A stretch of DNA of 55,346 nt. Origin: Patescibacteria group bacterium UBA2100 (GTDB lineage: Bacteria > Patescibacteriota > Minisyncoccia > Phycocordibacterales > UBA2100). Both the position numbers and the translations under genes were made by a program. The stretch spans positions 1-55,346 of the forward strand of contig DCYW01000019.1 of NCBI GenBank assembly GCA_002331185.1. The letters are read 5' to 3'. Shown here one piece after another: positions 45,463 through 54,251 of the stretch (position 1 is the first letter of the stretch; each line of letters starts with the position of its first letter). The notes beneath the pieces were generated by a model. That model was not told the DNA's origin. It saw only the letters and a program-made list of their open reading frames with translations, and did no database searches.

Positions 45463-45532
45463 AATTACGTAGAGATGTGGTGTAGCAAAAAACAAGACTG
45501 GATTCTAGCGTTTGCTTTGGTACACTCTTTGC

Positions 45533-46123
45533 ATGTATGGAAAGAAACAAGTCTTGGTTATTGCAGGACCTACCGCAAGTGGAGAGAGCACGTTTACTCA
45601 CGAACTCATAGATTCTTTTGAGAACTTTACAAAACTTGTTTCAGCAACGACCCGTAAACCACGGCTCAATGAACAGCATGGTATCGATTATTATTTCTTT
45701 ACTAAAGATAAGTTTTTTAAGGAAGTTGAAGCAGGTAACATTATTGAGCACACACACGTAGCAAACAGAGATGCCTATTACGGTTCGTACAAACCAGATC
45801 TCGATGCGAAGCTCGTTAAACATCTTAATGTTATAGTAAACACTGATCCGAGAGGTGCTCAGTTTTTTAAAGATAATTACGGGGCAACAACAATTTTTTT
45901 GCAACCAAAATCTTTAGAGGTTCTCGAAGAGAGACTGCGACGTCGTGATCCAGATATTACAGAAGAAGAAGTGCACAAGCGCGTGTTGAGCGCCAAAAAA
46001 GAAATAGAAGAGGCACAGGGGCGATTCGATTATATGGTATGGAACACAGACGGAGAGTTTGCTGATACATTATTTGATGTGGTTGAGATTTTGAAGCAAG
46101 AAGGCTACAGTATTCCCGAATAA
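45533..46123 (+). CDS. Guanylate kinase family protein (divergent paralog)
   Basis: P-loop GPTASGEST, TTRKPRLNEQHGIDYYF; start at ATG 45533. Confidence 0.75.
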   Translation: MYGKKQVLVIAGPTASGESTFTHELIDSFENFTKLVSATTRKPRLNEQHGIDYYFFTKDKFFKEVEAGNIIEHTHVANRDAYYGSYKPDLDAKLVKHLNVIVNTDPRGAQFFKDNYGATTIFLQPKSLEVLEERLRRRDPDITEEEVHKRVLSAKKEIEEAQGRFDYMVWNTDGEFADTLFDVVEILKQEGYSIPE

Positions 46124-46128
46124 CCAAT

Positions 46129-46698
46129 ATGCAATTGAATAATATAGTAATTATTTCTGGACCTTCGGGGGTAGGCGAAGACTCTGTTATTGAAGGCCTG
46201 CGCACTACTACAGCTATTAATCGCGTGGTCACTACAACAACTCGCGCACCTCGAAAAGAAGAAAAAGAAGGTCATCCATACTCTTTTATTTCCAAAGAAG
46301 AGTTTGAACAGAAAATAAAAGATGGAGAAATGGTTGAATGGGCTAAGCAATATAATGGAAATTTCTACGGAGTAACAAAAGAAGAGTTGCAACGCGTTAA
46401 CGATTTAGAAGGAGTGGGTGTGTGGAAGATTGAGTATCAAGGCGTTATTACGGCCAAGAAGTTGTTTCCAGAAATTAAGGCGATTTTGCTTTCGGCAGAA
46501 TCATTAGAGGTCCTTGAAGAGCGCATACGTAGTCGTGGCGAAGTGTCGGACAAATTTGTTGCTGAACGTATACAATATACGCAAGAATGGCTCAAACACG
46601 TTGATATATACGATTATACGGTTATTAATAAACAGGGGTTGTTACGCGAGACCATACAGGAGGTCGTGGACATTCTTCGTAAAGAACAGTATCTTTAA
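46129..46698 (+). CDS. gmk: Guanylate kinase
   Basis: GPSGVGEDS, TTTTRAPRKEEKEGHPYSF, NFYGV. Confidence 0.8.
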   Translation: MQLNNIVIISGPSGVGEDSVIEGLRTTTAINRVVTTTTRAPRKEEKEGHPYSFISKEEFEQKIKDGEMVEWAKQYNGNFYGVTKEELQRVNDLEGVGVWKIEYQGVITAKKLFPEIKAILLSAESLEVLEERIRSRGEVSDKFVAERIQYTQEWLKHVDIYDYTVINKQGLLRETIQEVVDILRKEQYL

Positions 46699-46705
46699 GG
46701 GCGTT

Positions 46706-47302
46706 ATGAATGAAACAAAGGCAAAGACAGTTCTCTTTTTTGGGCCATCAGGTGCAGGAAAAGGAACGCAGGTGGAACTATTAAAGGAGCATCTTAAGAA
46801 GCAGTCAGAGAGGAAAATGGTATACATTGAAATGGGTGGATTGCTGCGCGGAATGGTTGCCCGTGGTGACCTAACTGGAAAACTCACAAATGAAATTATT
46901 TCAAATGGTAGGCTGATGCCGAGTTTTATGCCCATTTATTTAATGACGCAGTATCTTGTCGATCATTTTACTGGACAAGAACATATCGTTGCTGACGGAG
47001 TTACTCGGCGTGAAGGGCAGGCGCGTGCCTTTGATGATGCAATGGTATTTTACGGTCGAGAAGACTACGAAGTTGTTTCAATTGAGCTTTCTTCTGAAAA
47101 AATAATCGAACGACTGCTTGCCCGAGGTCGCAATGATGATTCTGAAGAAAAAATACAACGAAGAATTGATTGGTATAATAAAGATGTACTTCCTGCACTT
47201 GGGGTTATGGAAGGGCGCGGACGAACTATTCATCGAATTGATGGGGCTCCAGAAGTTGAGGAAGTACACCAAGAGATTTTAAAGGCATTGGAACTTACAT
47301 GA
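46706..47302 (+). CDS. adk: Adenylate kinase
   Basis: FFGPSGAGKGTQ P-loop; start at ATG 46706 (the ORF-track start lies inside gmk). Confidence 0.9.
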   Translation: MNETKAKTVLFFGPSGAGKGTQVELLKEHLKKQSERKMVYIEMGGLLRGMVARGDLTGKLTNEIISNGRLMPSFMPIYLMTQYLVDHFTGQEHIVADGVTRREGQARAFDDAMVFYGREDYEVVSIELSSEKIIERLLARGRNDDSEEKIQRRIDWYNKDVLPALGVMEGRGRTIHRIDGAPEVEEVHQEILKALELT

Positions 47303-48048
47303 TTCTTCGAACAGAAACAGATCGAGATAACTTACGCGAAGGAGGGCGACGCCTTGCTACTATTTTACACCAGGCTTCAGAAAAAGCGGCTGCAGGTATA
47401 ACGTTAAAGGAGATAGACGCATACATACTGTCGCTTATTGAAGAGTATGGTAATACGCCGTCGTTTACTGGGTATGGAGACCCACCGTTCTCTGGAGTAT
47501 TTTGCTTGTCAGTAAATGACGGAATCGTACATGGCATTGCAAATGATTACGAACTCATTGAGGGTGATGTATTAAAAATTGATGGAGGAATTTGGCATGA
47601 AGGTTTGTGCACCGATTCGGCAATCACTGTAGGTATTGGGACTATCGCAAAAGAAGACCAAGAACTTATATGGGCAACGAAAGAAGCGCTTGATGCACAA
47701 ATTGCTGTAGCAGTAGCAGGGAACACCATAGGAGATATCGGGCATGCTGCTGAAGCGATTGCAAAGAAACACGGATATGGCTATCCAAAAGAGCTCGGAG
47801 GTCATGGAGTTGGTTTGAAAGTGCACGAACCTCCCTTTATTGCCAACTATGGAAAGAAGGGGAGAGGCGAAGTGTTAAAAGAAGGTGACGTACTCGCGCT
47901 TGAGCCAATGTTTTCCCGAGGATCCGGGAAAATACGTCTTGCAAATGATGGGTGGCTCTACTCCATGGTAGATGGCTCACAAAGCGCACACTTCGAACAC
48001 ACTGTTATCGTGGGCGAAACAGAGGCAGAAGTAGTCACACAAGTGTAA
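47299..48048 (+). CDS. map: Methionine aminopeptidase type I
   Basis: Metal-ligand pattern (D..D..H..E..E: KIDGG.., GHGVG, LEPM, FEHTV). Confidence 0.92.
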   Translation: MILRTETDRDNLREGGRRLATILHQASEKAAAGITLKEIDAYILSLIEEYGNTPSFTGYGDPPFSGVFCLSVNDGIVHGIANDYELIEGDVLKIDGGIWHEGLCTDSAITVGIGTIAKEDQELIWATKEALDAQIAVAVAGNTIGDIGHAAEAIAKKHGYGYPKELGGHGVGLKVHEPPFIANYGKKGRGEVLKEGDVLALEPMFSRGSGKIRLANDGWLYSMVDGSQSAHFEHTVIVGETEAEVVTQV

Positions 48049-48146
48049 TACGAGGTTGTAATGATTAAGCGAGTTAGAGTTTATTTATTTCTCGCAGAAT
48101 TGAACCTTAATATGATTAATTTTTTTACTAGACTGGGGCTAGATAG

Positions 48147-48535
48147 TTAAGCTGCACGATGTTTTATGAAGTAATCTTCTGGTGCATTAGTTATTGTTAC
48201 TTGTATTCCCAATGAGAGCGCATACAAATCGTCATTTTTAAAACTTGTATACGTGCTAGTCCAGTTCATCGATCGATTTATTTCATATAAGTTCGTTAAG
48301 TACTCGACGGTCGCCGTAAACTTATTGGGAGCACTCTGATATTAATATCTACATCTCCTTTCGTGAGCAAACCAGGAGCAGGTGTTCAACCTACGTGTTG
48401 GATGTCCACAAAATAAAGTTGGGTCGAGAGTTTTTTTTGGTTCTCAAACAATTGGCTGGCATGTTCTCTGAAGTTGTCACTTTTTCGTAACCCTACTATT
48501 TTCAATGTTTGCATTCTAATCTTCATCCTCACCAT
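48147..48535 (-). pseudogene. Decayed nucleotidyltransferase-fold gene (GrpB-like by motif memory) with an in-frame TGA and at least one frameshift
   Basis: Own reverse translation: M(VR)MKIRMQTLKIVGLRKSDNFREHASQLFENQKKLSTQLYFVDIQHVG*TPAPGLLTKGDVDINIRVL. After a frame change it continues ..PNKFTATVEYLTNLYEINRSMNWTSTYTSFKNDDLYALSLGIQVTITNAPEDYFIKHRAA*. The H.G(S)T..PGL..K..(I/V)DI pattern resembles GrpB-type proteins. Confidence 0.4.
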
Positions 48536-48580
48536 TGTTTTGTATAGTAGCGATCAATCATTACATTTTGCTAAACTGTT

Positions 48581-48625
48581 TCAACCATCTGTGACCAAGG
48601 TCGAACCTTGGTCACAGATGGTTGA
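48581..48625. repeat. Hairpin with 20-bp perfect stem and 5-nt loop
   Basis: tcaaccatctgtgaccaagg / ccttggtcacagatggttga, in the non-coding region after map. Confidence 0.9.
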
Positions 48626-48786
48626 CCCTTGATTAAAGACCTTGATTTGATGCCTTATCAACTATACCAATTAATTAGTATAGTTGGGACTGGATATGTA
48701 GGCAGATATGCAGATGGCTAGCTGTGTAAGGAGTGTGTAATAACTTGCAAAATGTGTGTACTAGTTATCGACACCAGTAGAAGGAA

Positions 48787-51762
48787 GTGCGATATACTAT
48801 GTGTATGCCACATATTGAAGGAGTGACACCAGATGTATCTACAACAGAACCTGTTGAGCGGTTTCGTACGCCAGAGGAAGAACTTGCGTACTTGCGCGAA
48901 CGTGTACGTATAAAAGAAACTGAACTCGAAGGCGAAAAGTCAGGTTTCGAGAAGGACAGAATTGCGAAAAGAGAAATTATCAAATATCACGATACTCCAG
49001 CTAAAGATGTTCTACACGACCGGTATCAAACCTCAGAAAGTCATATATTACGCGAAAAACTACGTCTCGAACCTGAAGAGCATGATGTACAGATTGACGA
49101 GCTTTTAAAAATGGTGGCAGATAAAGGTATTAAAAATACTCTTGCGGTGGTAAGTAAGATGGGTAGTGCACACCTTGAAGATGATTTACATCGAGCACTT
49201 ATCCAGTATGTTGCCGAAGGTTTCCCAACACAGGATGTCCGCAAAGGTTCTGAAGATTGGAAGGCATTACACATGGTGCTCTATGAGGTCTCACTTCCAG
49301 CACAAACTGCAAACGACAAGAATAATCAAAACCAAGATCTTGAAAAACTGCTTGCATCTATGGAGCAATTTTATGCCGGGATGTTGAGTGTGATGGGTAA
49401 AGGAAAGTTACAGAAAAAGGATATTTTTTCTGTTGAAATTGCGGTCCATCAAGGAAGCGAAGAGGCGATTTTTTATGTCGGTGTTCCACGCAAAAAGAGA
49501 GATTTGTTTGAACGGCATCTTATTTCTATCTTCCCCAATGCGCAAATCGAAGAAGTGCGCAGTGATTACAATATTTTTAGCTACGGCGGCGTTCATGCTG
49601 GAGCGTACGGCGTGCTCGAAAGAAGTCCTGTGTATCCAATAAAAGAATATAAAGATTTTGTGCATGACCCGTTAAATATTGTACTTTCCGCATTTAGCAA
49701 ACTTAAAAAACATGGAGAAGGGGCAGCTATTCAATTTATAATCGGAGATGATGGTGATTCATATAATCGGCAATATAAAAAAGTAGTTGATTATCTACGG
49801 GATGGGAAAAATGCGAAGAAGGCAATTAGGCACGGTACTTCGCCCTTTAGTGAGGCTATCGATGCTTTGGGAGAGAATTTGGTAGATATAGTAATGAACC
49901 GCTCAAAGAACACGCTCAACGATAAAGCTGTTGATCAGTTAACTCTAGAAACAGTTACCAAGAAGGTTAATAGCCGCATCGTTCCAGTGAACATTCGTAT
50001 ACTTGCTTCAGCACAAGAAGAGGGCCGAGCAGAGGACATTATTGAAAACATTGCATCAACATTCAACCAATTCGAGGAAGCTCAAGGGAACGCAATTAAG
50101 TTTATCCATGAACGTGGTGCAGCATTACGGAAATTTATGCACGCATTTACTTTCCGGACACTCAACTTTAAAAGGTTGCAGCCATTTTCGCTTACCGAAC
50201 TAACTTCTATGTATCACCTTACAGGTCAAGGAGTTTCAACATCACGTGAACTTAAACAAACGCGTGCGAAACATGTTTCAGCTCCTATCGAAGTATCTGC
50301 AGATGATGCCGACCAAGAGCAGGTACGAAATGAAACTCAGTCAGCAACACCTACTCCTGTCGAACAGGTGGAAACAAAGAGCACTCAAACATCAGAAGCG
50401 AGAACGCAAAAACGCCGAGGTGTAATTCTGGGTAAGAACACGTTTGGTGGCACTGACACGACGGTCAAGTTCTTAGCGGAAGACCGCATGCGTCACTTCT
50501 ACGAAATTGGACAAACGGGAACAGGTAAAACAAACCTGATGAAGAATATGATTATTCAAGATATTAAAAACGGGGAAGGTTGTTGTTACATTGACCCGCA
50601 TGGTTCAGATATTGTTGATATTTTGGCGGCTATTCCACCTGAAAGACACGACGATGTTATCTATTTTGACCCGAGCTATACACAACGCCCGATGGGGCTA
50701 AATATAATGGAATATAACCCAGAGTTTCCTGAGCAAAAAACGTTTGTAGTAAACGAAATCTTCAGTATTTTTGAGAAGTTGTTCTTAGCAAAGTCGCCTG
50801 AATCACTTGGTCCGATGTTTGAGCAATATTTCCGCAACGCAGCACTCTTAGTGCTGGAAGGAATGCCAGTAGGTACCGCAACAATGGCTGATATTCCACG
50901 TGTGCTCGCTAACGATGACTTTAGACACAAATGTCTTGCTAACTCACAAAATCCGCTCGTAAATCAATTTTGGGAAGAAATCGCCGAGAAAGCTGGTGGC
51001 GAAGCATCGCTTGAAAATATTGTGCCGTATATTACAGCGAAAACTGATATTTTCTTGAGTAACTCAACAATGCGACCAATTATTACACAGGAAAAATCAT
51101 CATTTAATTTCAGAGAGATAATGGATGGCCAAAAGATTCTGCTCGTGAATCTATCCAAGGGCCGGTTAGGAGACTTAAATGCCGAACTGCTTGGTTTGAT
51201 TATCGTGGGTAAGTTCTTGCAGGCTGCACTGTCACGTGTTGATGCTGTTGCCAGTGGCAGTACAGACATCAAAGATTTTTACCTCTATATTGATGAGTTC
51301 CAAAACTTTACGACTCCATCTATTGCAACGATTCTTTCTGAAGCACGTAAGTATCGGTTGTCGCTTAATATCGCACATCAGTTTATCGCGCAGCTTGATG
51401 AGAAAATTCGTGACGCGGTATTTGGTAATGTGGGAACTAAATGTGTGTTCCGTGTTGGTAACGAAGATGCTGAGTTCTTAGAGAAACAGTTCCAGCCAGA
51501 CTTTACTGCTGCTGATATTGTAGGCCTTGATAACTTTAATGCATACGTGGCACTCTTGGTTGATGGTAAACCAGTACGTCCATTCAATATGCACACATTA
51601 CCCCCTGAACCTGTTGATTTCGGTACAATTGATCATATCAAACAACTTTCATATCAGCGATATGGACGCGAATCGGCAGAAGTCGAAGCGGCTATTGAAA
51701 AAAAATACGCAAAGAAGGAAACTGAACCAAAGAACGGATTGAATCCGTCTGACTTCATTTAA
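48787..51762 (+). CDS. Orphan VirD4/TraD/TrwB-like (type IV secretion coupling-protein family) P-loop ATPase with an about 560-aa uncharacterised N-terminal region
   Basis: Walker A GQTGTGKT (50509-50532), Walker B-like FYLYIDEF (51277-51300), then ARKYRLSLNIAHQF. This is the TrwB/TraD nucleotide-binding pattern. No TM helix is visible. The start is ambiguous: GTG 48787, ATG 48799 or ATG 48805. Confidence 0.75.
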   Translation: MRYTMCMPHIEGVTPDVSTTEPVERFRTPEEELAYLRERVRIKETELEGEKSGFEKDRIAKREIIKYHDTPAKDVLHDRYQTSESHILREKLRLEPEEHDVQIDELLKMVADKGIKNTLAVVSKMGSAHLEDDLHRALIQYVAEGFPTQDVRKGSEDWKALHMVLYEVSLPAQTANDKNNQNQDLEKLLASMEQFYAGMLSVMGKGKLQKKDIFSVEIAVHQGSEEAIFYVGVPRKKRDLFERHLISIFPNAQIEEVRSDYNIFSYGGVHAGAYGVLERSPVYPIKEYKDFVHDPLNIVLSAFSKLKKHGEGAAIQFIIGDDGDSYNRQYKKVVDYLRDGKNAKKAIRHGTSPFSEAIDALGENLVDIVMNRSKNTLNDKAVDQLTLETVTKKVNSRIVPVNIRILASAQEEGRAEDIIENIASTFNQFEEAQGNAIKFIHERGAALRKFMHAFTFRTLNFKRLQPFSLTELTSMYHLTGQGVSTSRELKQTRAKHVSAPIEVSADDADQEQVRNETQSATPTPVEQVETKSTQTSEARTQKRRGVILGKNTFGGTDTTVKFLAEDRMRHFYEIGQTGTGKTNLMKNMIIQDIKNGEGCCYIDPHGSDIVDILAAIPPERHDDVIYFDPSYTQRPMGLNIMEYNPEFPEQKTFVVNEIFSIFEKLFLAKSPESLGPMFEQYFRNAALLVLEGMPVGTATMADIPRVLANDDFRHKCLANSQNPLVNQFWEEIAEKAGGEASLENIVPYITAKTDIFLSNSTMRPIITQEKSSFNFREIMDGQKILLVNLSKGRLGDLNAELLGLIIVGKFLQAALSRVDAVASGSTDIKDFYLYIDEFQNFTTPSIATILSEARKYRLSLNIAHQFIAQLDEKIRDAVFGNVGTKCVFRVGNEDAEFLEKQFQPDFTAADIVGLDNFNAYVALLVDGKPVRPFNMHTLPPEPVDFGTIDHIKQLSYQRYGRESAEVEAAIEKKYAKKETEPKNGLNPSDFI
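48793..48798 (+). promoter_or_regulatory. -10-like TATACT abutting the start region of the VirD4-like gene
   Basis: ATG 48805 lies 6 nt downstream, compatible with a leaderless start. Confidence 0.3.
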
Positions 51763-51842
51763 ATTGAGTGAAGGAAAACGCTACACAAGAGAGTTAAATA
51801 TGGTAGAGTTGCGCTATTATTTTGTAGATTTTTAGAATTACT

Positions 51843-52448
51843 ATGGCAAACAAAAAAGAGAGAACACTTGTTATTATAAAACCAGATGGCGTACAACGAA
51901 GCCTTATGGGTGAAATTCTTGGTCGTTACGAACGCCTTGGCCTCAAGTTGATTGCGGCAAAGTTTGTGTTGCCAACTCCTGAAAAAGCAACAGAACACTA
52001 CATGGTAGGTGGTGAAGAGTGGCTTGAAAATGTTGGGAAAAAAGCAGCAGCAGCGTATGAGAAAAAAGGATTAAAGTCACCGTATGCAACATCTCGAGAA
52101 AACGGCATGGCTATTCTTAAATCTAATGCATCGTACCTTGCATCAGGTCCAGTGTTGGCAATGGTATGGCAAGGAGCTCACTCTGTTGAAGTGGTACGCA
52201 AAATAACTGGTAGCACTGAACCTCGTACTTCTGACATTGGAACTATTCGTGGTGACTACATGCTCGACTCATACCAAATGGCAGATACTGATGAACGTTC
52301 AATACGAAACCTTATTCATGCCTCAGGTGAGGTTGATGAGGCAGAGAAGGAAATTCCAATCTGGTTTAATGATGATGAACTTATCGAATATCGAATTGCA
52401 CAAGAGCGAATACTGTACGATGCAGACTTTGGTGGTATCCTTGAGTAA
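51843..52448 (+). CDS. ndk: Nucleoside diphosphate kinase (long form with insertion)
   Basis: ERTLVIIKPDGVQR, GTIRGD, NLIHASG (active-site His). Confidence 0.85.
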   Translation: MANKKERTLVIIKPDGVQRSLMGEILGRYERLGLKLIAAKFVLPTPEKATEHYMVGGEEWLENVGKKAAAAYEKKGLKSPYATSRENGMAILKSNASYLASGPVLAMVWQGAHSVEVVRKITGSTEPRTSDIGTIRGDYMLDSYQMADTDERSIRNLIHASGEVDEAEKEIPIWFNDDELIEYRIAQERILYDADFGGILE

Positions 52449-52485
52449 GTAATCTAAAAAACATATGGTACTCACAAGAGGTGAC

Positions 52486-52656
52486 ATGGACAAAAAAATA
52501 ATTGAAGCAGCAAATTACCTTAAGAAGAAGGTGGTTGAAATGGAGAATTCGGAAAACACTGGTATAGGAGAGGGTAGACAGCGGGCTCATATAAAGCTTG
52601 AGGAATTAAAAGGCGTGTTTTCATATTTTGAGAAGGACTTGAAAAATCGAGAATAG
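52486..52656 (+). CDS. Hypothetical 56-aa protein
   Basis: AGAGGTG 4 nt before ATG 52486. Helical, charged, no motif. Confidence 0.3.
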   Translation: MDKKIIEAANYLKKKVVEMENSENTGIGEGRQRAHIKLEELKGVFSYFEKDLKNRE

Positions 52657-52682
52657 TTTCCAGGTTCCCTTTCCTCCATTCG

Positions 52683-52691
52683 TGCTATAAT
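52683..52691 (+). promoter_or_regulatory. Extended -10 (TGcTATAAT) in front of a structured untranslated segment
   Basis: Consensus TATAAT with an upstream TG. Confidence 0.35.
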
Positions 52692-52805
52692 GAGAAAAGC
52701 CGGAGGGCATTCCTGCTTAATTGCATTTACAGGGAGATTGAATTGTTCACTACCGTGGTAGCTGATACTGAAATCACCCACCTGGTATTCTCCAGGTATG
52801 CCCAC

Positions 52806-52848
52806 GGCACGTAAAAACTCGCTAGATTCTAGCGAGTTTTTACGTGCC
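52806..52848. repeat. Hairpin with 20-bp perfect stem and 3-nt loop
   Basis: ggcacgtaaaaactcgctag / ctagcgagtttttacgtgcc, 33 nt upstream of the beta-CASP RNase ATG. Confidence 0.9.
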
Positions 52849-52862
52849 GACACAAAGAGACA

Positions 52863-52871
52863 TGATAGAAT
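52863..52871 (+). promoter_or_regulatory. Extended -10 (TGaTAGAAT) 9 nt upstream of the beta-CASP RNase ATG
   Basis: Sequence match; no SD. Confidence 0.35.
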
Positions 52872-52880
52872 ACATGTTAC

Positions 52881-54251
52881 ATGCAGAAGAACCAATCGAA
52901 ACTTACCTTTGTCGGTGGCGCAGGGACTGTTACAGGCGCTAACTTCTTATTTGAAACAGGGAAGAAACGCGTACTTATAGATTGCGGTATGCTCCAGGGT
53001 TTTACACAAAGAATGAACGAGAATTACGAAGATTTCCCGTACAATCCTTCAACGATAGACGCAGTATTTGTAACCCACGCACATGCCGACCACATAGGGC
53101 GCATTCCTAAATTAGTACGAGATGGTTTTCGGGGAACCATTTACTCAACTTCAGCAACTCGAGATCTTGCGGAGGTTATGTTTGCTGATGCAGTTCGTAT
53201 TTTGCGAGATGAGGCAAAGAAACTAGGAGTTCCTCAAATGTATGAGGTGCAAGACATCGAACAAACATTAACGTTGTGGCAAACACGTAATTACCACGAA
53301 TCGTTCGATATGGGCGATGACGTTGCTGTTCGATTTCTAGATGCAGGACATATTTTAGGAGCCGCTATGGTCGAATTTACGCGACGTGGAAGAAAGTTTG
53401 TTGCATCAGGAGACTTAGGGAACTCTCCTGCACCACTATTACGAGATACCGAACCCGTTGTTGGCGCACACTACTTGTTAATGGAGAGTGTATACGGTGA
53501 TCGTGTGCATGAAAACAGAGAAGACCGAGTTAGTTTACTACGTGATGCGATTATGGATACTCATAAAAATACCGGTACGTTGCTTATACCGTCTTTTGCG
53601 ATGCAGCGCACACAACTACTGCTGTATGAGATAAACAAAATGGTTGAACAAGGTAGTGTGCCAGCAATACCAGTGTACTTAGATTCACCTCTTGCGAGCA
53701 AGGTGACCGATATATATAGGAAACATACCAATTTATTTAACGACAATGTACAAAAAGAAATTGCAGCAGGGGATGATATTTTTGAATTTCCGCGTTTCAC
53801 TATAGTGCGCGATGCGAAAGAATCTCATTCGCTGTTACGTGCACCATCACCAAAGGTCATTATCTCAGCTTCAGGCATGTCTGTTGGAGGGAGAATAATT
53901 ATGCACGAAAAAAGACTACTCACTGATAAGAACACGACAATTTTGTTTGTAGGGTATCAAGGAGTGGGTACGCTCGGGCGACGTATTCAAGATGGAGCAC
54001 AGAATGTGACCATCGAAAAAAAGAAAGTTCGCGTAAGAGCGCGACGTCAAACCATTCGTGGATTTTCAGCACATAAAGACCGAGAAGGACTCATAGATTT
54101 TGTAGAAAATTCATCTGAAACTCTTGAGGGGGTTTTTGTAGCAATGGGTGAGCCCAAATCGTCGTTATTTCTAGTACAGCGATTACGTGACTTTCTTTCA
54201 GTGCCTGCTAGTGCTCCCGAGCGGGGGGATATAGAGATATTAAACTTTTAA
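52881..54251 (+). CDS. Beta-CASP family metallo-beta-lactamase ribonuclease (CPSF/RNase J-like)
   Basis: VTHAHADHIG motif, beta-CASP-length insert, and a C-terminal ..GFSAHKD motif. Confidence 0.8.
   Translation: MQKNQSKLTFVGGAGTVTGANFLFETGKKRVLIDCGMLQGFTQRMNENYEDFPYNPSTIDAVFVTHAHADHIGRIPKLVRDGFRGTIYSTSATRDLAEVMFADAVRILRDEAKKLGVPQMYEVQDIEQTLTLWQTRNYHESFDMGDDVAVRFLDAGHILGAAMVEFTRRGRKFVASGDLGNSPAPLLRDTEPVVGAHYLLMESVYGDRVHENREDRVSLLRDAIMDTHKNTGTLLIPSFAMQRTQLLLYEINKMVEQGSVPAIPVYLDSPLASKVTDIYRKHTNLFNDNVQKEIAAGDDIFEFPRFTIVRDAKESHSLLRAPSPKVIISASGMSVGGRIIMHEKRLLTDKNTTILFVGYQGVGTLGRRIQDGAQNVTIEKKKVRVRARRQTIRGFSAHKDREGLIDFVENSSETLEGVFVAMGEPKSSLFLVQRLRDFLSVPASAPERGDIEILNF

Follow-up and report, generated by a model that had tools for sequence, protein, structure and literature searches.

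What does a coupling-protein-type ATPase do when it is encoded among housekeeping genes, apart from any T4SS gene? This question is raised by one gene in a 55,346-nt stretch of DNA from Patescibacteria group bacterium UBA2100 (contig DCYW01000019.1), which was analysed as a whole and is called the window here. The preliminary description had reported an open reading frame of 991 aa at 48787-51762, with a Walker A motif, a Walker B motif and a downstream coupling-ATPase block. The open reading frame list and the translation bear out this frame, and the probable start is somewhat shorter: because a database twin with 100 % identity (P0002) is 987 aa long, the ATG at 48799 is the likely start, giving 987 aa. 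With residues counted from the GTG, the protein is divided as follows.

48787..51762, plus strand: whole gene, 991 codons from the GTG at 48787, stop at 51762 (open reading frame list and translation)
48868..49218, plus strand: fused N-terminal helical module, residues 28-144 (hhalign, n10 HMM, AF2)
49234..50301, plus strand: core of the N-terminal domain, Pfam PF26449, residues ~150-505 (Pfam labels of homologues, AF2, Foldseek)
50302..50418, plus strand: variable linker rich in Q, T and E, residues 506-544 (column identity 0.01, low pLDDT)
50419..51666, plus strand: coupling-protein-type P-loop ATPase domain, residues 545-960 (Pfam, NCBIfam, Foldseek)
50509..50532, plus strand: Walker A, GQTGTGKT, residues 575-582 (translation, invariant columns)
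50719..51126, plus strand: all-alpha insertion between Walker A and Walker B, residues ~645-780 (AF2, structural alignment with TrwB)
51277..51306, plus strand: Walker B, FYLYIDEFQN, residues 831-840, including D836 and E837 (translation, invariant columns)
51343..51384, plus strand: ARKYRLSLNIAHQF block, residues 853-866 (translation, invariant columns, Pfam TraG-D_C match at 831-895)

The ATPase domain carries the three motifs that had been pointed out before, and all of them are invariant across 60 relatives: G575, Q576, T577, G578, G580 and K581 in Walker A, D836, E837, F838, Q839 and N840 in Walker B, and the ARKYRLSLNIAHQF block, a conserved motif of coupling proteins that includes R854, K855 and Q865. 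The Pfam models TraG-D_C (29.7 bits, GA 22) and TrwB_AAD_bind (22.3 bits, GA 20.5) score above their gathering scores, as does DUF87, and a profile search of the PDB returned TrwB and DotL as the best matches. The C-terminal half is therefore a VirD4/TraD/TrwB-type ATPase, as first proposed. The best NCBIfam matches are also TraD/VirD4-like and are sub-threshold, with 13-40 bits against cut-offs of 250-800 (39.6 against 366 for SXT_TraD, 36 against 250 for CD1115 and 24.8 against 648 for TOL TraD); none of the matching models reaches the curated NCBIfam T4CP cut-off. In the predicted structure, the all-alpha insertion forms seven helices (residues 650-758) and is equivalent to the all-alpha domain of TrwB. 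The Pfam TrwB_AAD_bind match to this insertion is weak. In the Foldseek search, TrwB matched over the ATPase with a target-normalised TM-score (TMt) of 0.58-0.66 at 16-18 % identity, and Cagβ and HerA matched as well.

We also compared the domain with the other motors of this genome. An FtsK/SpoIIIE identity was rejected, as PF01580 has no match at the locus and the FtsK of the genome is a separate gene (C8, 217 bits). The VirB4 model TIGR00929 gives 15.8 bits on the window protein against a 643-bit cut-off, and hhalign was insignificant both for a CPR VirB4 profile against the family relatives and for the family profile against VirB4s. The real VirB4 of the genome is a different gene, which matches VirB4 profiles at 99-100 % in hhalign. 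By its sequence, the ATPase is thus coupling-protein-like and not VirB4-like, and, to judge from the 49 % identity that it keeps across classes, it is under purifying selection.

The first ~560 residues had been described as matching nothing. In precomputed annotation, the twin P0002 and nearly all of the 120 homologues listed carry the label PF26449 there, followed by PF12696 (TraG-D_C), so this half contains a catalogued Pfam domain, for whose accession we found no mention in the literature. The AF2 model of the N-domain has a pLDDT of 87.6 (AlphaFold models overall, 83-88) and predicts a core of two alpha/beta subdomains with a fold like that of the VirB4 N-terminal domain (NTD). Foldseek, which had been suggested for both the N-terminal half and the full-length protein, placed TrwK/VirB4 on top in either case: the top 14 PDB matches of the N-terminal model are all TrwK/VirB4 (E 6e-7 to 2e-4, prob 1.0) with a TMq of only 0.31-0.34, and the full-length model matches TrwK/VirB4 at E 1.8e-15 over 907-956 columns. 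Sequence searches of the PDB, one using the single protein and another an N-domain profile, returned nothing below E 0.01; their best matches, a PsaK chain and uS19 ribosomal proteins (E 0.014-0.6), were taken as chance. The N-domain gave no hhalign signal against the VirB4 and TrsD-like proteins of this genome, whether single sequences or alignments of 21 sequences each were used. Since no profile similarity links the N-domain to CPR VirB4 or TrsD, its likeness to the VirB4 NTD comes entirely from Foldseek, with modest TM-scores.

Within the N-terminal domain, E193, E217, Y261, N262, F264, D294, K305, Q316, K393, R404, Q428, R457, E471 and H477 are invariant across the phylum. The linker that follows is probably disordered, given an AF2 pLDDT below 50 at residues 508-542. 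The family combines a PF26449 N-domain, with a predicted VirB4-NTD-like fold, and a VirD4/TrwB/TraD-type ATPase. VirB4 proteins usually have no TM helix of their own. VirB4 (TrwK of R388; PDB 7o42, 7o43, 8rtb and 8rtd) shares the layout of an N-domain and a C-terminal ATPase and is the best full-length structural match, whereas the ATPase of the window protein is T4CP-like by sequence and the two N-domains have no sequence similarity.

Two TM helices are usual in canonical T4CPs. In the window protein, a Kyte-Doolittle scan over 19 residues at a time found none, in line with the preliminary description, and it found none in 75 relatives from the same order; the sole hydrophobic peak, near residue 797, lies within the conserved ATPase core. 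In the 20 loci from other classes, 18 of the 23 family members begin with a single strong TM helix, the place of which is occupied by the fused helical module in the window's order. Residues 28-144 are homologous to n10, a soluble protein of 150-165 aa that is encoded by a separate gene directly upstream in other Patescibacteria classes (hhalign of A1 against A3, 95.6 %, E 1.2e-8, 117 columns), and the n10-family HMM matches 57 long members of the window's order; the AF2 model has a pLDDT of 83-91 at residues 100-150. This match to a separately encoded upstream protein indicates a gene fusion, and hence that, in the window's order, the membrane anchor was replaced by a fused small partner protein. 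The alternative upstream small protein of other classes, n4, has no similarity to the N-terminus of the window protein, and neither n4 nor n1, a conserved downstream small protein of those classes, has a detectable homologue in this genome.

Compared with T4CPs (TrwB of R388, VirD4, TraD, Cagβ and DotL), the window protein has in common the P-loop ATPase of the FtsK/HerA superfamily, the all-alpha insertion and the TraG-D_C block, and its orthologues in other Patescibacteria classes are also anchored in the membrane N-terminally, by one TM helix. It differs from T4CPs in having no TM anchor, no T4SS linkage and no detected relaxase, and in carrying ~500 extra N-terminal residues that comprise the fused module and PF26449.

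The N-terminal domain of the family is present in 396 of the 401 sampled Patescibacteria genomes, with 2-4 copies per genome and most often 2-3. Close homologues number more than 1,172 and cluster representatives 2,806, so the earlier label of an orphan fits the local neighbourhood and not the protein overall. Contrary to what had been supposed, the motor is also not alone in its genome: contig C16 contains a T4SS cluster of PrgI (PrgI/VirB3-like), TrsD-like and VirB4 genes. The proposed search for T4SS and relaxase genes elsewhere in the genome was thus positive for the former, and the relaxase Pfams PF03432, PF01076, PF03389 and PF08751 had no match in this 95 %-complete genome. VirB4 itself was found in 387 of the 401 genomes. 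VirB4 was undetectable even at E ≤ 1e-3 in five genomes, of which four have a completeness of 99 % or more; these five keep 3-4 family copies, each genome with at least one intact full-length open reading frame (828-888 aa).

In the survey by Quiñonero-Coronel et al. 2025 (PMC12102498), 5,713 VirD4-like homologues are counted in 2,918 of 3,035 Patescibacteria genomes, about 2 per genome; 148 of these 5,713 'T4CP homologues' lie near virB4, and their function is left unexplained there. These are very probably the family of the window protein. The gene is thus no lone novelty but belongs to a near-universal family that has been counted already, and the family itself is not new but catalogued. 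The N-terminal domain with its predicted VirB4-like fold, the swap of TM helix for fusion, the conserved synteny and the non-CPR relatives are not described in the available part of the survey. The survey reports that in S. epibionticum the T4CP homologue is non-essential in Tn-seq and the T4SS essential, and an earlier account likewise gives the T4SS as essential in the tested species, with no coupling protein recognisable in the T4SS cluster (PMC10633639). The several paralogues per genome (2-4) could account for the non-essential homologue of S. epibionticum.

We then considered the neighbourhood of the gene. By Pfam annotation, the window contains secY, two gmk genes, adk, map, ndk, a β-CASP nuclease and VanY near it, of which the following bear on its position.

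47299..48048, plus strand: map (methionine aminopeptidase), end of the spc ribosomal cluster (Pfam Peptidase_M24)
51843..52448, plus strand: ndk (Pfam NDK)
52881..54251, plus strand: β-CASP metallo-β-lactamase nuclease (Pfam Beta-Casp, Lactamase_B, RMMBL)

Synteny was assessed in 80 species-level relatives and 20 loci of other classes. Among the 80, map lies upstream of the family gene in 40, ndk downstream in 40 (directly adjoining in 26) and the β-CASP gene 2-6 genes downstream in 29. About half of these relatives show the order map-[gene]-ndk, and the position is conserved across dozens of genera. Because map-[gene]-ndk-β-CASP is kept across the order, the break after map is ancestral, and what had been taken for a rearrangement scar is not a local one. 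The 738-bp gap at 48049-48786, searched with all neighbour proteins, yielded nothing convincing. A consensus scan of 47900-53000 found promoter and terminator sites no commoner than in shuffles and no terminator between the family gene and ndk.

Within the order, the survey of neighbours thus bore out ndk and the β-CASP gene, the latter of which had been put forward as a partner. The β-CASP gene is absent from all 20 loci examined in other classes; a gene for a 200-aa uncharacterised protein and dnaX lie downstream there, and the neighbourhood also includes a GtrA-like gene and dnaB. We rejected it as an obligate partner, since its synteny is restricted to the window's order. No VirB4, relaxase or other T4SS gene is annotated in the window, as stated before, and across the 100 Patescibacteria loci (1.8 Mb in total) the 10 kb on either side of the family gene contain no T4SS gene. 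The gene lies on the chromosome among conserved housekeeping genes and is unlinked to the T4SS cluster at all 100 related loci.

Such a setting would suit a T4SS-independent housekeeping translocase, an exapted motor that would move or remodel DNA or RNA inside the cell or at a different envelope machine, for example the ComEC/pilus uptake route, and would work with its conserved neighbours, not with VirB4. T4SS synteny at 0 of 100 loci is consistent with this, as are the spc cluster, the NMP/NDP kinases and the β-CASP nuclease around the gene in the window's order, the 200-aa protein, GtrA-like gene, dnaX and dnaB in other classes, and the DNA translocase HerA among the structural matches. 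The five genomes that keep the family while having no detectable VirB4 point in the same direction, and exaptation is considered possible in PMC12102498. However, the neighbourhoods vary between classes, so that the small n10 protein is the sole conserved candidate partner; a genuine FtsK is already present in the genome; and the absence of VirB4 in 14 of 401 MAGs may reflect an assembly gap. On this evidence a housekeeping translocase is a tentative alternative, possible but rather improbable.

The relatives outside CPR speak further to this question. On the Natronorubrum aibiense plasmid NZ_CP045489, a pilin is followed further along by a VirB4-like gene, an N-domain-only protein and a T4CP-like ATPase (hhalign 99.3 % for the VirB4-like protein; 95.1 %, E 3e-8 for the 395-aa N-domain-only protein; 99.7 %, E 9e-27 for the ATPase). 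On the Haladaptatus halobius plasmid NZ_CP085340, a VirB4-like gene precedes a fused N-domain and ATPase gene (hhalign 99 %, E 9e-18 over 677 columns). Bacillus phage G encodes a 'VirB-like' protein, gp155, and directly after it gp156, which matches both halves, the N-domain by fold at E 7e-17, and a Pontibacillus megaplasmid has a decayed family copy 7-14 kb from a pilin/VirB6/VirB4 cluster. The haloarchaeal plasmid modules and gp155-gp156 share the order of N-domain and ATPase, as fused or adjacent genes; they differ from the window gene in being mobile-element genes right after a virB4-like gene, and they are 20-30 % identical to the window protein. SPO1-like phages encode VirD4-like relatives of about 900 aa. 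A tblastn search of 50,697 phage records with the N-domain gave no match, and the phage kinship is visible solely by fold and via the ATPase half.

All non-CPR relatives with an informative context adjoin a virB4-like gene, which argues against a T4SS-independent translocase. The preliminary description had named two findings that would go against a motor of an undescribed system, namely relatives in ordinary conjugative or T4SS loci and a known domain in the N-terminal half that accounts for its role; the virB4-adjacent relatives and the known N-domain with a VirB4-like predicted fold go part of the way on both. Because relatives occur on plasmids and in Bacillus phages, and an ATPase-only paralogue on contig C21 adjoins an IS200-like transposase, the gene might also be viewed as a non-functional relic of an integrated conjugative element or prophage. 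Its intact open reading frame, its invariant catalytic residues and a chromosomal position kept across dozens of genera led us to reject this, and no integrase, repeat or relaxase is associated with the gene; a relic is extremely improbable.

The ATPase half has many further matches on Bacillus plasmids (278 records), and its closest plasmid relative, from Bradyrhizobium at 34 % identity, lies between CHAT and TPR genes. This context and the best PADLOC match, mad8 at E 2e-13, would fit a defence or conflict ATPase like the T4CP/HerA-like NTPases of the MADS, Dnd and Sir2-HerA systems. The mad8 match is confined to the generic ATPase core, and in the window the neighbours are housekeeping genes with no other defence component adjoining. 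Defence genes are patchy and mobile, whereas this family, which 396 of 401 genomes carry, lies in synteny with ribosomal genes and has retained 49 % identity across classes; neither presence/absence variation between close strains nor co-localisation with defence islands was seen. A defence role is thus very unlikely, and we rejected it.

We suspect instead that the window protein is a domesticated coupling-type ATPase serving the genome's chromosomal T4SS, a candidate role to which we give about an even chance. The partner machine would be the monoderm-type (MPF-FATA-like) T4SS encoded on another contig, with its PrgI/VirB3-like, TrsD-like and VirB4 proteins. In favour of this role are that T4SS cluster itself, the presence of VirB4 in 387 and of the family domain in 396 of the 401 genomes, and the non-CPR relatives beside virB4-like genes; against it are the lack of T4SS genes around the family gene at 100 loci, the mere 148 of 5,713 homologues near virB4, the non-essential S. 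epibionticum homologue, the five genomes that have no detectable VirB4 and the lack of profile similarity between the N-domain and CPR VirB4 or TrsD. A hexamer of the window protein would sit at the cytoplasmic face of this machine, dock by means of its VirB4-NTD-like domain together with the fused module instead of a TM anchor, and hydrolyse ATP to recruit or push a substrate. Since no relaxase was detected, a DNA strand piloted by a relaxase would be the less likely substrate, and a protein or a nucleic acid that has not been processed the more likely one.

Conceivably, the motor might not be a secretion component at all but a translocase that imports or processes nucleic acid from the host. 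In the window's order it would then be inherited together with enzymes for converting RNA or DNA into NTPs: the β-CASP nuclease, gmk, adk and ndk, joined in relatives by a cmk-like gene, pyrH and a SLOG protein. An RNA-feeding lifestyle has been proposed for Patescibacteria, with the uptake mechanism left unsettled (bioRxiv 10.64898/2026.06.21.733656). We consider such a role very improbable; if true, it would supply the uptake step missing from that proposal.

Patescibacteria are dependent on host bacteria. Abundant VirD4-like genes lie elsewhere in their genomes and were left unexplained by the later survey (PMC12102498). Across the phylum, the architecture runs from a TM helix or fused partner through a domain with a predicted VirB4-NTD-like fold to a T4CP-type ATPase. 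On two haloarchaeal plasmids, and also in Bacillus phage G, this module comes after a virB4-like gene, and in one order the membrane anchor has been swapped for a fused small protein. This leads to testable predictions: a docking surface on the machine, a small partner protein and a redundancy of paralogues that masks essentiality. A T4CP-type motor whose N-domain has a predicted VirB4-like fold is also relevant to the divergence of the two T4SS ATPases.

In the ORF list and translation, the gene under study is an uninterrupted plus-strand frame of 991 codons that opens at GTG 48787 and closes with the stop codon at 51762. Because a database protein of 100% identity has a length of 987 aa, the true start is probably ATG 48799; residues are numbered here from GTG 48787. 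The C-terminal half carries the motif blocks of a coupling-type (T4CP; VirD4/TrwB/TraD) ATPase, and their residues show no variation in 60 relatives, nor in a 59-sequence alignment across several classes.

Motifs of the gene product and two related copies
Residues 575-582 (gene at 48787-51762, plus strand): Walker A, GQTGTGKT, in the C-terminal half
D836/E837 (same gene): Walker B, FYLYIDEFQN, in the C-terminal half
Residues 853-866 (same gene): third motif block, ARKYRLSLNIAHQF, in the C-terminal half
C21:2544-4232 (locus L007): ATPase-only paralogue on another contig of the same genome, 562 aa, 45% identical to the gene product
L131:7881-11160: decayed N-domain and ATPase copy on the Pontibacillus sp. 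ALD_SL1 megaplasmid NZ_CP062975

A Kyte-Doolittle scan found no TM helix in the gene product or in 75 relatives of its order, Phycocordibacterales; in all of them the sole hydrophobic peak, near residue 797, lies within the conserved ATPase core. In the window the gene is preceded by secY, two guanylate-kinase paralogues, adk and map, followed by ndk, a β-CASP nuclease and VanY, and has no T4SS genes among its neighbors. The motifs, the hydropathy scan and the neighbors therefore agree with the preliminary description of a VirD4/TraD-like protein lacking a membrane anchor and any T4SS genes in the window.

The same description called the gene an orphan and recognized no match in its first ~560 aa. 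Neither holds: more than 1,172 full-length homologues were found (50-85% identity), most of them unnamed and all named ones from Patescibacteria (CPR), and they bear the precomputed Pfam label PF26449 in their N-terminal half (the N-domain, residues ~150-505). At least 593 species-level genomes encode relatives. Searched against 1.84 billion proteins, a profile of the N-terminal half matched 2,806 cluster representatives; in 401 genomes drawn evenly from the phylum, it detected the N-domain in 396 genomes and 318 of 320 genera, mostly in 2-3 copies per genome. In a few complete genomes, one of them of the same order, the N-domain form is absent and an ATPase-only paralogue alone is kept. The median identity between classes is 49% for the ATPase domain (residues 545-960) and 24% for the N-domain, where twelve polar residues are invariant phylum-wide (E193, E217, N262, D294, K305, Q316, K393, R404, Q428, R457, E471 and H477).

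ORFs predicted in 80 related loci were grouped into families by BLASTP. The order shows a recurring arrangement, rplO-secY-(cmk-like)-(gmk)-adk-(pyrH)-map-[gene]-ndk-(136-aa unknown)-β-CASP-SLOG, with rplT and infC coming next on the opposite strand. Of the 80 loci, 40 have map upstream and 40 have ndk downstream; many of the others are truncated. The recurrence indicates that the break in the ribosomal cluster after map is ancestral to the order, so that the proposed local "rearrangement scar" beside the gene can be set aside. The junction itself varies, with purD, a PaaX-like gene or small ORFs inserted in some genomes. In the window it is a 738-bp non-coding gap, in which the neighbor proteins of relatives found no match. 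About 170 bp ahead of the gene, the gap contains a perfect inverted repeat of ~19 bp at 48582-48624, with arms at approximately 48582-48600 and 48606-48624; the repeat could be a terminator of the ribosomal cluster or an operator. NMP/NDP kinases are concentrated at this end of the spc cluster (two gmk, adk and ndk; 45512-47302 and 51843-52448), and in relatives (L008-L087) they are joined, beside the β-CASP nuclease, by pyrH, a SLOG-family protein and a cmk-like gene. The grouping has the look of a nucleotide-salvage super-cluster that the order has conserved. At its longest, the adk ORF (TTG 46514) shares ~185 bp with the second gmk (46514-46698); the Pfam ADK match begins at residue 76, and the true start is therefore probably near 46730.

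The 20 loci from other classes have a distinct context: cysS on the opposite strand, a 150-180-aa protein of the n10 or n4 family, the family gene, the small protein n1 and dnaX, often with a GtrA-like membrane protein between the last two; dnaB, dus and corA are nearby. The n1 protein (~200 aa) has a coiled-coil N-terminus followed by a β-rich part with the motif YPVPANYASKSKLVEGD. Its position between the family gene and dnaX recurs in 16 of the 20 loci (L091-L110); it matched no Pfam family and no homologue in the window's genome. The n4 family, which alternates with n10, carries the motif LPGINxFFLEQEAKIKTD.

In these loci, 18 of 23 family members have one strong TM helix at the start (19-residue hydropathy of 2.4-3.5 within residues 5-50), directly preceding the N-domain; among the proteins of 802-862 aa, 18 of 19 begin in this way. 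The gene product instead has, at residues 28-144, a segment homologous to n10 (hhalign 95.6%, E 1.2e-8, 117 columns), which in other classes is a separate gene immediately upstream of the family gene. An HMM of five n10 proteins matches 57 long proteins of the window's order. The lack of a membrane anchor, true of the gene product and its order, is thus a lineage-specific state and not a property of the family, and the sequences indicate that the TM segment was replaced by fusion of a partner protein. Nothing else points as strongly to a functional partner of the motor as this fusion does.

Pfam assigns the ATPase to TraG-D_C, TrwB_AAD_bind and DUF87, slightly over gathering scores; among NCBIfam models the TraD/VirD4-like ones score best, all far under cut-offs, and VirB4 is much weaker. 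In a search with a family profile, the best matches of solved structure were TrwB and DotL, and the CPR VirB4 profile and the gene-family profile each recognize their own kind alone, separating the two ATPase families cleanly. AlphaFold2 models built from 60-sequence alignments had a pLDDT of 83.2 and a pTM of 0.70 at full length, and of 87.6 and 0.81 for residues 25-510. The full-length model matched whole VirB4 (907-956 columns, E 1.8e-15), followed by TrwB (TM-score normalized to the target 0.58-0.66, 16-18% identity), Cagβ and HerA; the seven helices modeled between the Walker motifs are the predicted counterpart of the coupling-protein all-alpha domain. For the N-terminal model alone, the top 14 PDB matches were all TrwK/VirB4 chains of the R388 T4SS (E 6e-7 to 2e-4, ~410 columns, TM-score normalized to the query 0.31-0.34), and those beyond were unrelated and weaker than E 5e-3. 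Since the N-domain has no sequence-profile similarity to CPR VirB4 or TrsD, its likeness to the VirB4 N-terminal domain is structural only. The gene product thus resembles VirB4 (TrwK) in predicted overall architecture but differs in ATPase family by sequence: the motor is coupling-protein-like and the architecture VirB4-like.

The genome does contain T4SS genes, outside the window. Contig C16:21259-24267 (locus L006:10260-13268) encodes PrgI (VirB3-like, 143 aa), a TrsD-like 221-aa protein and a 632-aa VirB4-like ATPase, flanked by unannotated proteins of 684, 679, 368 and 426 aa. VirB4 was detected in 387 of the 401 sampled genomes and, at 50-60% identity across the phylum, is better conserved than the gene family. 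No relaxase was found with four relaxase Pfam families in the 95%-complete assembly, and genuine FtsK is a separate gene on contig C8. The ATPase-only paralogue has neither a TM helix nor an N-domain. Its contig is 5 kb long, and its neighbors there are a DUF4015 glycosyl-hydrolase-like gene on one side and an IS200-like transposase on the other; a hydrophobic, possibly TM, stretch is encoded by a short ORF directly upstream. In other genomes, paralogues of this type follow a diverged N-domain that has its own gene (446-500 aa).

Outside Patescibacteria, a search of 72,556 plasmids by tblastn with the N-domain gave two matches, both confirmed by profile comparison; three plasmids with the N-domain are described in what follows. 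On a Haladaptatus halobius plasmid, a 1,221-aa two-domain protein (99%, E 9e-18, 677 columns) directly follows a gene for a 1,115-aa VirB4-like protein (99%, E 2e-18 against the CPR VirB4 profile). A Natronorubrum aibiense plasmid has the order pilin, further genes, VirB4-like (99.3%), N-domain-only protein (395 aa, 95.1%, E 3e-8) and T4CP-like ATPase (1,014 aa, 99.7%, E 9e-27). A ComEC/Rec2-family (metallo-β-lactamase type) gene at L135:14370-15380, ~3 kb downstream of this module, has a counterpart in the MBL-fold β-CASP nuclease that follows the gene in the window's order, which may be coincidence. Among phages, the N-terminal model matched Bacillus phage G gp156 (E 7e-17, TM-score normalized to the query 0.47), proteins of JL and Slash, and gp155, and the ATPase half matched gp156 (26%, E 8e-28) and ~900-aa "VirD4-like" proteins of SPO1-like phages. 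The gene immediately before gp156 in phage G is the "VirB-like" gp155; in all, the N-domain and T4CP-like ATPase module directly follows a virB4-like gene in three mobile elements, two haloarchaeal plasmids and phage G. The Pontibacillus copy has an intact N-domain ORF (97.8%, E 1.3e-12), while all that remains of its ATPase is a 184-aa ORF and additional fragments that the plasmid table leaves unannotated; 7-14 kb away is a Gram-positive T4SS-like cluster (Mbov_0395 pilin-like, TrbL/VirB6-like, CD1110-type VirB4, cell-wall hydrolase). This megaplasmid also bears a complete flagellar gene set. Despite such relatives, it is unlikely that the gene is a mobile relic; it is an ordinary, intact member of a catalogued, functionally unexplained family. 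For the ATPase half by itself, the nearest relative on a plasmid (Bradyrhizobium, 34%) lies between CHAT and TPR genes, and the best PADLOC match is mad8, indicating that this motor type is also used in conflict systems; for the gene itself, with its recurring housekeeping neighbors, a defense function is likewise unlikely.

We give roughly even credence to the gene product being a domesticated coupling-type ATPase of the chromosomal T4SS. The motor would be hexameric and would dock on a VirB3/VirB4/VirB6-type inner-membrane platform via the fused n10 module together with its VirB4-NTD-like domain; the TM helix of other classes may help to hold it there. It would energize recruitment or transfer of a substrate other than a relaxase-piloted DNA strand. 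The essential T4SS of S. epibionticum has no recognizable coupling and relaxase proteins (Wang et al. 2023, PMC10633639). Quiñonero-Coronel et al. 2025 (PMC12102498) surveyed 3,035 Patescibacteria genomes and report 5,713 VirD4-like T4CP homologues, spread over 2,918 of them; just 148 homologues lie near virB4, and relaxases are rare. The paper describes the S. epibionticum T4CP homologue as not essential and raises exaptation as possible. In our literature search we met no account of the N-domain, of its fold, of the anchor swap or of relatives outside CPR.

Against a T4SS role, the family gene is unlinked to a T4SS in 100 of 100 loci, no homologue of the C16 cluster genes having been found within 10 kb (1.8 Mb). 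The reported non-essentiality also speaks against it, although 2-4 paralogues per genome could mask essentiality. In addition, five genomes without detectable VirB4 retain 3-4 copies, each set with at least one intact full-length ORF. The few complete genomes without the N-domain form count against a T4SS role as well. The absence of linkage and the retention without VirB4 suit the main rival, a nucleic-acid translocase with a T4SS-independent housekeeping role; the virB4 adjacency outside CPR suits the coupling role, and we regard the rival as less likely. The preliminary interpretation is thus partly supported: the coupling-type ATPase without anchor or local T4SS stands, while the orphan of an undescribed system does not. 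The gene deserves note as a variant of the coupling proteins rather than as a system of a new kind.
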